64,000 bases of DNA from Escherichia coli (lineage in GTDB: Bacteria > Pseudomonadota > Gammaproteobacteria > Enterobacterales > Enterobacteriaceae), in assembly GCF_013122565.1 (NCBI RefSeq), contig NZ_CP053258.1, one strand, 5' to 3'. Made by a program: the position numbers and the translations under genes. Positions 59,603 to 64,000 of the stretch are shown here, piece by piece. The notes below the pieces were generated by a model. It saw only the letters and a program-made list of their open reading frames with translations. It did no database searches and was not told the origin of the DNA. Positions within the stretch are counted from its first letter, which is position 1; every line of letters begins with the position of its first letter.

Positions 59603-61291
59603 ATGAGTGGTGAAAAAAAGGCGAAAGGCTGGCGGTTCTATGGTCTTGTAGGTTTAGGCGCAATAGCACTGCTTTCCGCTGGCGTCTGGGCGTTGCAATA
59701 TGCTGGCAGTGGGCCAGAAAAAACGTTGTCGCCGCTGGTGGTGCACAACAATCTGCAAATCGATCTCAATGAGCCGGACCTCTTTCTCGACAGCGACTCT
59801 CTGAGCCAGCTTCCCAAAGATCTCCTTACCATTCCGTTTCTCCACGATGTTCTGAGCGAAGATTTCGTTTTCTATTATCAGAATCATGTCGATCGTCTGG
59901 GCATTGAAGGCAGCATTCGCCGCATTGTCTATGAACACGATCTCACGCTGAAAGATAAGCTCTTTTCGTCACTCTTAGATCAGCCCGCGCAGGCGGCGCT
60001 ATGGCACGATAAACAAGGCCATCTTTCACATTACATGGTGCTGATCCAGCGCAGTGGTTTAAGCAAACTGCTGGAGCCATTGTTGTTTGCCGCTACCAGC
60101 GATAGCCAGTTAAGCAAAACGGAAATCAGTAGCATCAAGATAAATAGTGAAACTATTCCTGTTTATCAGTTGCGCTATAACGGCAATAACGCCCTGATGT
60201 TCGCGACATATCAGGACAAGATGCTGGTGTTTTCCAGCACGGATATGCTGTTTAAAGATGAACAGCAGGATACCGAAGCTACGGCGATCGCAAGTGATTT
60301 GTTGAGCGGTAAAAAACGCTGGCAAGCCAACTTTGGCCTGGAAGAGCGTGCTGCCGAAAAAACGCCAGTACGCCAGCGCATCGTGGCCAGCGCCAGGTTG
60401 CTGGGTTTTGGCTACCAGCGATTAATGCCTTCTTTTGCCGGTGTGCGCTTCGAAATGAGCAACGACGGTTGGCATAGCTTTCTGGCGTTAAATGATGAAT
60501 CCGCTAGTGTGGATGCCAGTTTCGATTTTACGCCGGTATGGAGCAGTATGCCTGCCGGGGCCAGCTTCTGCGTGGCTGTGCCTTATTCACACGGTATTGC
60601 TGAAGAGATGCTCTCACAAATCGGTCAGGAAAAAGATAAGTTGAATGGGGCATTAGATGGCGCAGCCGGGTTGTGTTGGTATGAGGATTCAAAACTGCAA
60701 ACCCCGCTATTTGTTGGCCAGTTTGATGGCACTGCCGAACAGGCGCAATTGCCTGGGAAGCTGTTTACCCAAAATATTGGCGCTCGTGAAAGCAAAGCGC
60801 CAGAAGGTGTTTTGCCGGTAAGCCAGACTCAGCAGGGCGAAGCGCAAATCTGGCGTCGCGAAGTGAGTTCCCGATACGGTCAGTATCCGAAAGCGCAGGC
60901 GGCGCAACCCGATCAATTAATGTCGGATTATTTTTTCCGCGTGTCGCTGGCGATGCAAAACAAAACGCTGCTTTTCTCCCTCGATGACACGCTGGTTAAT
61001 AACGCCCTGCAAACACTGAATAAAACCCGCCCGGCAATGGTGGATGTAATACCCACTGATGGCATCGTTCCGCTCTATATCAATCCACAAGGCGTGGCGA
61101 AACTGCTGCGTAACGAAACGTTGACCAGTCTGCCGAAGAATCTCGAACCGGTTTTTTATAACGCCGCACAAACTTTATTAATGCCGAAGCTGGACGCTTT
61201 ATCTCAACAATCGCGTTATGTCATGAAGCTGGCCCAGATGGAACCCGGTGCCGCCTGGCAGTGGCTACCCATAACCTGGCAGCCGCTATGA
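59603..61291 (+). CDS. yfaA: DUF2138-family exported protein YfaA
   Basis: 562 aa from [30 protein letters not shown]... (N-terminal signal/anchor); track ORF begins 16 codons upstream. Confidence 0.8.
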
Positions 61292-61911
61292 GGCACGGGC
61301 TGCTGGCGCTGATTTGCTGGCTGTGTTGTGTTGTTGCCCATAGCGAAATGCTGAATGTCGAACAATCCGGGCTTTTTCGCGCCTGGTTTGTGCGCATTGC
61401 TCAGGAACAGCTCCGCCAGGGGCCAAGTCCACGCTGGTATCAGCAGGATTGTGCGGGCCTGGTGCGATTTGCAGCGAACGAGGCGCTGAAAGTTCACGAC
61501 AGTAAATGGCTAAAAAGTAACGGGTTATCTAACCAGTATTTGCCGCCAGAGATGACGCTAACACCTGAACAGCAGCAACTGGCGCAAAACTGGAATCAGG
61601 GGAACGGGAAAACCGGCCCCTACGTGACCGCGATTAATTTGATTCAGTACAACAGCCAGTTTATTGGCCAGGACATAAACCAGGCGCTGCCTGGCGATAT
61701 GATTTTTTTCGATCAGGGCGATGCCCAGCACTTAATGGTCTGGATGGGGCGTTACGTCATCTACCACACCGGAAGCGCCACGAAAACTGACAACGGAATG
61801 CGCGCAGTCAGTCTGCAACAACTTATGACATGGAAGGACACCCGATGGATACCCAACGATTCCAATCCCAATTTCATTGGCATTTATCGTTTAAATTTTC
61901 TGGCGCGATAG
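61288..61911 (+). CDS. yfaT: DUF1175-family exported protein YfaT
   Basis: 207 aa from [20 protein letters not shown]... (signal peptide); ATGA overlap with yfaA stop. Confidence 0.8.
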
Positions 61912-64000
61912 CAGCGTGCTTGTCCCTGTCTCTTATGGGAACAGGGCTTGCCAATGCTGATGATTCGCTTCCTTCCAGCAACTATGCGCCGCCCGCCGGG
62001 GGAACATTCTTTTTGCTTGCTGACAGCAGTTTTAGCACCAGTGAAGAGGCGAAAGTGCGACTGGAAGCGCCGGGGCGTGATTATCGGCGTTATCAGATGG
62101 AAGAGTACGGCGGTGTGGACGTTCGTCTGTATCGTATTCCTGACCCGATGGCATTTTTGCGCCAGCAGAAAAATCTGCATCGCATTGTGGTGCAACCGCA
62201 ATATCTGGGCGACGGGCTGAACAATACGCTGACCTGGCTGTGGGATAACTGGTACGGCAAATCTCGCCGCGTGATGCAGCGTACTTTTTCTTCTCAGTCT
62301 CGGCAGAATGTGACTCAGGCGTTACCCGAATTACAGCTCGGCAATGCCATTGTTAAACCTTCCCGTTATGTACAGAACAGCCAGTTTTCACCGCTGAAAA
62401 AATATCCACTGGTGGAACAGTTCCGTTACCCATTATGGCAGGCTAAACCAGTCGAGCCGCAGCAAGGGGTAAAACTGGAAGGCGCATCCAGCAATTTCAT
62501 CTCGCCGCAGCCGGGCAACATCTATATTCCTCTCGGCCAACAAGAGCCGGGGCTGTACCTCGTCGAGGCGATGGTAGGTGGGTATCGGGCGACGACGGTG
62601 GTGTTTGTTTCCGATACCGTGGCGCTTAGCAAAGTGTCAGGTAACGAGCTTCTGGTGTGGACCGCGGGTAAAAAACAGGGTGAAGCGAAGCCCGGCTCAG
62701 AGATCTTGTGGACTGACGGTCTTGGCGTGATGAACCGCGGTGTGACCGATGACAGCGGTACCTTGCAGTTACAACATATATCGCCAGAACGTTCATACAT
62801 TCTGGGTAAGGATGCTGAAGGCGGCGTTTTTGTCTCCGAGAACTTCTTCTACGAAAGCGAAATCTACAACACCCGCTTGTATATCTTTACCGATCGCCCG
62901 CTATATCGCGCAGGCGATCGTGTCGATGTTAAAGTGATGGGCCGCGAGTTCCACGATCCGTTGCATTCATCCCCCATCGTCAGCGCCCCGGCGAAGCTTT
63001 CGGTGCTGGACGCCAACGGCAGTCTGTTGCAAACCGTCAATGTCACGCTGGATGCGCGCAATGGCGGGCAGGGGAGTTTCCACCTGCCAGAAAATGCCGT
63101 TGCCGGAGGTTATGAGTTACGTCTTGCTTACCGCAATCAGGTCTATAGCAGCAGTTTTCGCGTAGCCAACTATATCAAGCCGCACTTCGAGATTGGCTTA
63201 GCGCTCGATAAAAAAGAGTTCAAAACCGGGGAAGCGGTGAGCGGCAAACTGCAACTGCTCTATCCGGATGGCGAGCCGGTAAAAAACGCCCGCGTGCAGT
63301 TAAGTCTGCGATCCCAACAACTGTCGATGGTGGGCAACGATTTGCGTTATGCCGGACGTTTTCCCGTGTCGCTGGAAGGCAGCGAAACGGTGTCCGACGA
63401 TAGCGGTCATGTGGCGTTAAATCTCCCCGCCGCCGATAAACCAAGCCGTTATTTGTTAACCGTCTCCGCCAGTGACGGTGCGGCGTATCGTGTCACCACC
63501 ACCAAAGAGATCCTCATTGAACGTGGCCTGGCGCATTACTCATTAAGTACTGCCGCACAATACAGTAATAGCGGCGAGTCGGTTGTGTTCCGTTATGCCG
63601 CGCTGGAATCTTCAAAACAGGTTCCTGTTACGTATGAATGGTTGCGTCTCGAAGACCGCACGAGCCATAGCGGAGAGCTACCGTCAGGCGGCAAATCCTT
63701 TACCGTCAATTTCGCTAAACCTGGCAACTACAATCTGACATTACGCGATAAAGACGGCTTAATTCTCGCTGGGTTAAGTCATGCCGTCAGCGGTAAGGGC
63801 AGCACGGCGCATACGGGTACGGTAGATATCGTGGCGGATAAAACGCTGTACCAGCCAGGCGAAACCGCGAAGATGCTGATTACTTTCCCGGAGCCAATTG
63901 ATGAAGCGTTATTGACGCTGGAACGCGATCGCGTGGAACAGCAGTCGCTGCTTTCGCATCCGGCAAACTGGCTGACGTTACAACGTTTAAACGATACCCA
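61845..64000 (+). CDS. yfaS: Alpha-2-macroglobulin-family protein YfaS, N-terminal 718 codons or more (runs off window end)
   Basis: Third plus-strand frame has no stop from about 61791 to 64000 (so absent from the ORF track); translation shows a signal peptide (...[20 protein letters not shown]) and repeated MG-domain-like segments; start is approximate (ATG at about 61845 or 61830). Confidence 0.7.

Follow-up and report, generated by a model that had tools for sequence, protein, structure and literature searches.

The region downstream of gyrA in Escherichia coli raises two questions: what the products of its yfaA-yfaT-yfaS gene set do, and whether yfaS, annotated as a pseudogene (b4500) in K-12, is intact in other strains. 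Both were addressed for a stretch of 64,000 nucleotides of E. coli DNA (contig NZ_CP053258.1; hereafter the window), at whose 3′ end the three genes lie. The region is probably the 5′ part of the Escherichia yfaA-yfaT-yfaS-yfaQ-yfaP operon, the five-gene enterobacterial form of the type II bacterial alpha-2-macroglobulin (Mag) operon, a grading that applies to the explanation as a whole, including a mechanism transferred from Pseudomonas aeruginosa. Prior knowledge already covers the cluster itself, the sorting of bacterial alpha-2-macroglobulins into two genomic contexts, the lack of the thioester and the pseudogene state of yfaS in K-12.

The three genes are tightly coupled translationally, by an ATGA overlap and then by an overlap of 67 nt, and are laid out as follows.

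59603-61291, plus strand: yfaA, with its ATG at 59603 and its stop codon at 61289-61291 (562 amino acids)
61288-61291, plus strand: ATGA, the start of yfaT overlapping the stop of yfaA (translational coupling)
61288-61911, plus strand: yfaT, with its ATG at 61288 and its stop codon at 61909-61911 (207 amino acids)
61832-61838, plus strand: GGAAGGA, the Shine-Dalgarno sequence of yfaS, inside yfaT and 6 nt before the yfaS ATG
61845-61911, plus strand: out-of-frame overlap of yfaT and yfaS, 67 nt
61845-64000, plus strand: 5′ part of yfaS, 718 of an expected 1534 codons (2156 nt), cut by the window end

The yfaS frame contains no stop from the ATG at 61845 through base 64000. A preliminary description of this DNA had reported three consecutive plus-strand genes, the ATGA overlap, an overlap of yfaS with the 3′ end of yfaT and a frame open for more than 2.1 kb, and the coordinates of all of these hold. 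The ATGA junction of yfaA and yfaT also occurs in other Escherichia species and in Superficieibacter. Because the genes align without gaps to E. coli orthologues, differ from K-12 mostly at third codon positions and have low ratios of nonsynonymous to synonymous divergence (dN/dS) relative to K-12 (yfaA 0.08, yfaT 0.12, yfaS 5′ part 0.065; gyrA 0.007), they are real genes rather than chance open reading frames, and all three are under purifying selection. The minus-strand open reading frames of the region, all shorter than 100 aa and nested in yfaA, yfaT or yfaS, were treated as spurious. Recent horizontal transfer was considered on base composition and rejected, as the GC content and third-position GC content (GC3) of the three genes match those of gyrA and of the window average.

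The gene identities proposed earlier are upheld by Pfam, by Protein Data Bank (PDB) entry 7bk8, by a fold search and by gene order in K-12 and in E. coli SI-NP020. YfaA matches Pfam DUF2138 over residues 15-559 (E = 5.6e-284) and NCBIfam PRK11410 with 895 bits (cut-off 529), and is 96.8% identical to K-12 YfaA. YfaT, 98.6% identical to its K-12 counterpart, matches Pfam DUF1175 (E = 6.5e-59) and, over the 186 residues 21-206, P. aeruginosa MagC (PDB 7bk8; E = 4.2e-104), with most aligned positions identical. The match of YfaT to Pfam NLPC_P60 is weak and below threshold (E = 0.0026); taken together, the similarities place YfaT in the MagC family of NlpC/P60-like periplasmic proteins. Residues 1-718 of YfaS align without gaps, at 98% identity, to a 1534-aa protein of SI-NP020 and are likewise 98% identical to K-12. 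NCBIfam contains no model for YfaT, YfaS or YfaQ; a newer Pfam release labels PF06672 “MagC” and PF09906 “YfaP_C”.

In terms of gene order, the K-12 and SI-NP020 annotations both give gyrA-yfaA-yfaT-yfaS-yfaQ-yfaP, with yfaS described there as an alpha-2-macroglobulin family protein. Species-representative genomes, when scanned, yielded 12 loci, belonging to Escherichia, Superficieibacter, Entomohabitans, Citrobacter, Yersinia, Pseudomonas, Aquimonas and Bacteriovorax, all with the order yfaA-yfaT-yfaS-yfaQ and all but two with yfaP next. Across the orthologous loci compared, yfaQ follows yfaS in 13 of 13 and a downstream yfaP is found in 11 of 13, one of the remaining two ending inside yfaQ and the other, from Aquimonas, showing only an upstream paralogue; in each of 10 further E. 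coli loci, too, gene calling placed a yfaP downstream. Only the Pseudomonas sp. and Aquimonas loci have a YfaP-type gene on the upstream side of yfaA. The P. aeruginosa magABCDEF operon has six genes, with MagA and MagF being paralogues (PMC3735191). No MagA paralogue is present as a first gene in the window, where gyrA and a terminator lie directly upstream of yfaA; because gyrA, not magA, directly precedes yfaA, the window carries the five-gene enterobacterial form. No pbpC lies beside yfaS in the window or in the compared relatives, in agreement with the earlier placement of yfaS in the conserved-cluster class of alpha-2-macroglobulins rather than the one adjacent to pbpC. PADLOC returned no match for any of the five operon proteins, and an anti-phage defence reading was dropped.

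The part of YfaS inside the window covers the following domain features.

62472-63794, plus strand: tandem all-beta macroglobulin-type domains of YfaS, residues ~210-650 (Pfam and AlphaFold model)
63825-64000, plus strand: start of the A2M_BRD bait-region domain of YfaS, cut by the window end

One Pfam domain in the fragment is significant, MG2 at residues 344-440 (62874-63164; E = 2.1e-19), and sub-threshold beta-sandwich matches (bMG3, MG4, CarboxypepD_reg and PKD) recur about every 100 aa. An AlphaFold model of YfaS 1-718, built on a 14-sequence alignment and used as evidence for the macroglobulin-domain array only, is of moderate confidence, with a mean predicted local distance difference test (pLDDT) score of 62, and places beta-sandwich blocks at approximately residues 226-331, 343-441, 449-558 and 565-649, with pLDDT of 70-87 in these domains. 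The best PDB matches of the model are E. coli ECAM (5a42, E = 1e-23, and 4ziq) and the Salmonella A2M 4u48, down to E = 4e-20, followed by complement C3, C4 and C5; the template modelling (TM) scores are low because inter-domain placement was not modelled. The model thus points to an array of macroglobulin domains in the N-terminal part of YfaS, most like those of bacterial alpha-2-macroglobulins. The MG-domain-like repeats of the preliminary description are confirmed by these matches, and the profile search that it had proposed for the yfaS frame returned A2M-type domains, with MG2 significant. By sequence alone the relationship is distant: phmmer gave no match between YfaS and ECAM, their similarity being too low. 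The A2M_BRD match within the fragment is weak (residues 661-696); the full-length orthologue, 98% identical, gives A2M_BRD at residues 661-806 (E = 2.9e-17), A2M (4.8e-12) and bMG10 (1.3e-5). This full-length E. coli orthologue also contains the sequence TNRSERR, which resembles the MagD bait ANRSERG (the latter quoted in PMC5764988).

The thioester position corresponds to residue 1069, beyond the window end. Among the Enterobacteriaceae orthologues examined, 10 of 10 (six of them from Escherichia) have GG(V/A)(I/V)NT at this site, the Escherichia form being GGVINT, and the C.EQ motif is absent along the whole length of the same 10. The aligned site reads GCVEQT in Aquimonas (residue 1080) and Bacteriovorax (residue 1050), and GGVEQT in Pseudomonas sp. 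Because the cluster-embedded macroglobulins of Aquimonas and Bacteriovorax keep GCVEQT, the equation of type II with a thioester-less protein is not universal. To judge from the aligned sites, thioester loss in the cluster family looks stepwise or graded, with GCVEQT, GGVEQT and GGVINT as its observed forms.

The yfaS ATG sits within the conserved YfaT codons for T-R-W-I-P, and of 13 related loci, reaching as far as Bacteriovorax, 12 have an overlap with yfaT of the identical length of 67 nt. In a comparison of five Escherichia species loci the overlap shows 0-2 nucleotide differences, whereas synonymous divergence (dS) in the flanks reaches 0.3-0.8; so few substitutions beside such high neighbouring synonymous divergence point to dual-coding constraint. 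The resulting N-terminus carries a candidate export signal.

61845-61958, plus strand: YfaS signal peptide, residues 1-38, Sec-type, with predicted cleavage at ANA|DD

This N-terminus comprises a charged n-region, encoded in the overlap, an uncharged run of 21 residues (residues 18-38) and the sequence ANA|DD, whose place corresponds by homology to the cleavage site of MagD. In every YfaS orthologue compared, the conserved mature N-terminus has an AxA-like site ahead of it at the equivalent position. Anchoring of YfaS as a lipoprotein through Cys25 (IAAC) was considered and rejected, as conservation extends to the AxA site but not to the cysteine, which is replaced by Tyr in Escherichia sp. 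E1V33 and absent elsewhere. YfaS is read here as a probable signal-peptidase-I substrate that does not have a lipobox; signal peptides, like the YfaA anchor discussed below, were called by inspection of sequence features and by homology. Codons 2-25 of yfaS contain no alternative start codon. The GTG at codon 31, chosen by automatic annotation, was rejected as the start, as it would remove the hydrophobic core of the signal peptide. Since GTG-31 and later starts lose the signal peptide, the ATG inside yfaT is taken as the functional yfaS start in Escherichia. Automatic annotations (PGAP and the gene calls of the contig collection) begin yfaS 30 or 70 codons late, and the signal peptide is lost from their products.

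YfaA, a protein of the MagB type (DUF2138, COG4685), is the counterpart of P. aeruginosa MagB and, by analogy, may act as an inner-membrane anchor and stabiliser of the macroglobulin. Two features of its 5′ end are of interest.

59583-59598, plus strand: ribosome-binding region of yfaA, TATACACAAGGAATGT, with the Shine-Dalgarno sequence AAGGA at 59590-59594, 8 nt before the ATG
59636-59695, plus strand: hydrophobic segment of YfaA, residues 12-31, a predicted N-terminal transmembrane anchor

The N-terminus of YfaA consists of a charged stretch followed by an uncharged run of 27 residues, with 19-aa Kyte-Doolittle windows of up to 1.8. Over the whole protein, windows above 1.6 start at residues 12-15 only. 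In all YfaA orthologues compared, the N-terminus has a basic stretch and, after it, some 20 hydrophobic residues. The homologue MagB has no predicted signal peptide, has one transmembrane helix and is found in the inner-membrane fraction (PMC3735191); because of this precedent, the YfaA segment is more likely an uncleaved anchor than a signal, and YfaA most likely carries a membrane anchor rather than a cleaved signal peptide. The preliminary description had assigned an export signal to each of the three proteins. This stands for YfaS and YfaT, both with predicted Sec-type signal peptides (that of YfaT has an n-region that is short and basic, then a hydrophobic core and AHS|E), but for YfaA an anchor is the better reading. 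The consensus for CsrA/RsmA binding is RUACARGGAUGU, and the sequence TATACACAAGGAATGT at the yfaA ribosome-binding site resembles it and constitutes a putative site. An ACA(R)GGAU.GU-like core likewise lies upstream of yfaA in Entomohabitans and Superficieibacter, the remaining intergenic sequence being different. Because the Pseudomonas mag operon is under RsmA/GacA control, CsrA control of E. coli yfaA is plausible.

The smallest of the three proteins, YfaT, carries a set of residues of the NlpC/P60 type.

61450-61452, 61729-61731 and 61765-61767, plus strand: codons for YfaT Cys55, His148 and His160, respectively, an NlpC/P60-type Cys-His-His set

These three residues do not vary in any of the 15 aligned sequences, which span Escherichia to Bacteriovorax and count MagC 7bk8 among them; nor do a (V/I)W-ended motif and the motif YHTG. 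MagC is NlpC/P60-like, binds peptidoglycan and was found inactive, according to PMC10318531 (citing Zouhir 2021). Invariance of the Cys-His-His set despite the reported inactivity suggests a function of YfaT and MagC beyond those assayed. Identity to the Pseudomonas sp. orthologues is 69% for YfaT, 53% for YfaS and 45% for YfaA; by this measure of sequence identity, conservation within the system is highest for its small NlpC/P60-like subunit.

The preliminary description had presented the cluster as intact. Intactness is shown for yfaA, for yfaT and, in yfaS, over the first 47%; the remaining 3′ 53% of yfaS, together with yfaQ and yfaP, lies beyond the window end. It was correct that yfaS is interrupted in K-12: the translated lesion is a single in-frame change of TGG to TGA at codon 1368 of 1534 (W1368*), a codon that corresponds to about window coordinate 65946, ~1.9 kb past the window end. 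K-12 yfaS is open over the same first 718 codons, and for this reason the open frame in the window does not separate an intact state from the K-12 state. The locus was found in 5398 of 5426 complete E. coli genomes, and the exact K-12 61-mer around the TGA in 364 of 5426, with K-12-type laboratory strains making up 38 of the 40 matches listed. A full 1534-codon yfaS is present in 9 of 10 diverse E. coli contigs that share the GyrA protein of the window, and a full frame in 5 of 5 loci from other Escherichia species. In the tenth contig, GCA_012019725.2, yfaS (frame from 15018) is truncated at codon 1069, an inactivation independent of W1368*. An intact yfaS is the normal state in E. coli and its inactivation is sporadic; an intact copy, which the preliminary description saw as a useful entry point, is not a special one. 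That the cluster of this genome is a decaying remnant, with yfaS interrupted past the window as in K-12, is accordingly improbable: the window does stop at codon 718 and sporadic inactivation exists, as both the K-12 allele and the one truncated locus among the 10 attest, but the visible part shows no break and evolves under purifying selection (dN/dS 0.07-0.12), and the full frame prevails in the sampled loci of E. coli and of the other Escherichia species. In the genome of this window, yfaS is very probably intact.

The mechanism proposed for the operon is modelled on P. aeruginosa. MagD is periplasmic and associated with the inner membrane, complexed with MagA, MagB and MagF (PMC3735191), and MagB, its anchor and main stabiliser, is needed to keep it stable and in place at the membrane (PMC5764988). 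MagD fitted with an engineered TEV bait is cleaved and retains TEV protease with no thioester involved (PMC5764988), and a 2025 study reports that P. aeruginosa is shielded by magD from VgrG3 and Tae1, two type VI effectors that target peptidoglycan (PMC12663445). By analogy, YfaA (MagB) in the inner membrane would hold and stabilise YfaS (MagD) at the periplasmic face, together with YfaP (MagF), and YfaT (MagC) would bind peptidoglycan. An incoming hydrolase would cut the bait region of YfaS, upon which the macroglobulin would close on the enzyme. The captured enzyme would be held non-covalently, as the thioester Cys and Gln are replaced in the Escherichia orthologues (GGVINT versus GCxEQT). 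The likely role of such a complex would be protection of the periplasm and cell wall from foreign enzymes, for example peptidoglycan-targeting type VI effectors or host proteases.

Several points weigh against this explanation. The literature searched yielded no experiment on the E. coli proteins, and all mechanistic steps are transferred from P. aeruginosa, identity to the Pseudomonas sp. proteins being 53% for YfaS and 45% for YfaA and the match much closer for YfaT. The preliminary description had called the function of the cluster experimentally unresolved, which is true of the E. coli proteins but not of the family, as the P. aeruginosa mag system has been studied biochemically and genetically (PMC3735191, PMC5764988, PMC12663445; structure 7bk8). 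Trapping by MagD was demonstrated only with the engineered TEV bait and was incomplete (PMC5764988), the authors of the 2025 study state that they do not know how protection from the effectors works at the molecular level (PMC12663445), and VgrG3 hydrolyses glycans and is not a protease. A MagA paralogue is also lacking in E. coli, the bait region, thioester position, yfaQ and yfaP all fall outside the window, and features of the sequence, together with homology, were the basis for predicting the signal peptides and the YfaA anchor.

The main rival holds that the complex is chiefly a module for cell-wall maintenance or damage sensing, in which YfaT and YfaQ would process or sense peptidoglycan and YfaS would be a large scaffold. 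The invariant Cys-His-His set of YfaT across 15 sequences is in line with this proposal, as are the binding of peptidoglycan by MagC, reported in PMC10318531 (citing Zouhir 2021), and the make-up of YfaQ, a tandem DUF2300 protein whose orthologues show a weak SpoIID match. The rival would also fit the specificity of magD protection for peptidoglycan-targeting effectors, the glycan hydrolase VgrG3 included, and the altered chlorhexidine tolerance of a magD mutant (PMC12663445). However, MagC is reported to have shown no hydrolase activity, neither MagC nor MagE was detected in the stable complex of MagD (PMC3735191), MagD is cut in its bait region by several proteases and retains TEV (PMC5764988), and E. 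coli keeps the bait-like TNRSERR. On balance we regard a scaffold role as rather unlikely. The original proposal for bacterial macroglobulins was that of a host-directed colonisation factor, and YfaS would on this account neutralise host proteases in the gut. The family is widespread in colonisers and pathogens, magD mutants are reported to be less virulent in a chronic infection model (PMC5764988), and 5398 of 5426 E. coli genomes retain the locus; yet YfaS bears a signal peptide of the Sec type, and the homologue is periplasmic and bound to the inner membrane (PMC3735191), and because the homologue stays there YfaS would meet host proteases only after a breach of the outer membrane. The cluster is found, moreover, in lineages that are not host-associated, such as the Aquimonas and Bacteriovorax metagenome bins, and a host-directed role appears very unlikely.

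A trapping complex of the Mag type could also be joined to an active YfaT. In this joint reading the strictly conserved Cys-His-His set of YfaT would be catalytic under conditions other than those assayed, for example transpeptidase- or transglutaminase-like, and would covalently fix the captured target or the cleaved macroglobulin to peptidoglycan, replacing the lost thioester. Such a combination is speculative and very unlikely. If it were true, the five-gene E. coli operon would provide general non-cognate immunity to type VI effectors that target the cell wall, and CsrA might control it through ACAAGGAAUGU, the putative site at the yfaA ribosome-binding site.

The upstream edge of the operon is marked by the following features.

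59454, plus strand: gyrA stop, the upstream neighbour of yfaA
59474-59535, plus strand: terminator-like hairpins after gyrA, the upstream edge of the yfa operon

A terminator scan identified the hairpin AAGGGAGCTATCTCCCTT with a T-rich tail at 59474-59491, and a second hairpin 3′ of gyrA, CCAGGC-TGCAAA-GTCTGG followed by GCTTTTG, was read from the sequence. A simple sigma-70 scan found no consensus sigma-70 promoter between gyrA and yfaA, and no Rfam family exceeded its threshold anywhere in the 64-kb window.

The best match among the 5426 complete E. coli genomes is ~97% identical in nucleotide sequence over yfaA-yfaS and 98.5% identical over the first 25 kb of the window. Ten E. coli contigs with an identical GyrA are 94.6-96.8% identical over yfaA-yfaS, and other (cryptic) Escherichia species 89-94%. 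The few matches of at least 99% in the E. coli collection are short intergenic fragments from strains that do not carry the cluster. Look-ups of the exact YfaA protein and of YfaT, the latter with two start variants, gave no recorded sequence. With a best identity of only 97-98.5%, the window comes from an E. coli-group lineage that is poorly represented in the collections searched. The whole window is an E. coli-group chromosome segment, with nuo, men, arn, glp, nrd, yfaL, ubiG, gyrA and yfa. At 44577-44619, between glpQ and a LysR regulator, it does not have the frameshifted hypothetical gene of PapM-32-1 (5801-6871), and at 56728-56827, between ubiG and gyrA, it does not have the GntR/MFS/mandelate-racemase island of SI-NP020 (2668-6147). 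The ato operon lies between yfaP and rcsC in K-12 and is not found there in SI-NP020.

The locus has little weight as a discovery, as the cluster is annotated in E. coli genomes, Pfam families are already named after Mag and intact copies are the rule. Its value is practical: non-K-12 strains with an intact yfaS, such as E. coli W and BL21, offer a more tractable host in which findings from P. aeruginosa could be tested, namely thioester-independent trapping and protection from cell-wall-targeting type VI effectors. For those who use K-12, it is relevant that the strain carries a natural nonsense mutation in yfaS.

Among known systems, YfaT can be compared with the NlpC/P60 cell-wall peptidases. 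In MepS (Spr), one such peptidase, the two histidines are spaced by 12 residues. YfaT has the DC(A/S)G cysteine motif of these enzymes and likewise two histidines 12 residues apart; it differs in its sub-threshold Pfam match and in that its family is described as catalytically inactive and peptidoglycan-binding in PMC10318531. The type I alpha-2-macroglobulins, ECAM (YfhM) and Salmonella A2M, belong to the same superfamily as YfaS, provide its best structural matches and share the bait-region and A2M domains. Type I proteins have a lipobox cysteine, a CLEQ thioester and an adjacent pbpC. YfaS differs on each count: its Cys25 lacks conservation, the orthologues carry other residues at the thioester site, and the gene is flanked by yfaT and, in relatives, by yfaQ.

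The K-12 cluster (b2230, b2229, b4500, b2226 and b2225) agrees with the window in its position after gyrA, its gene order, its ATGA and 67-nt overlaps and its gene lengths. K-12 carries TGA at yfaS codon 1368; the window ends before that codon and before yfaQ and yfaP. The P. aeruginosa magABCDEF operon (PA4492-PA4487) differs from the cluster of Escherichia and other Enterobacteriaceae by its upstream magA, and the RetS/RsmA/GacA regulation of mag is known for Pseudomonas only; Pseudomonas sp. has GGVEQT at the thioester site where Escherichia has GGVINT. MagD resembles YfaS and its orthologues in having a signal peptide and a bait-like sequence and in having neither a lipobox nor CxEQ, and the genes correspond one to one in the same order: yfaA to magB, yfaT to magC, yfaS to magD, yfaQ to magE and yfaP to magF.

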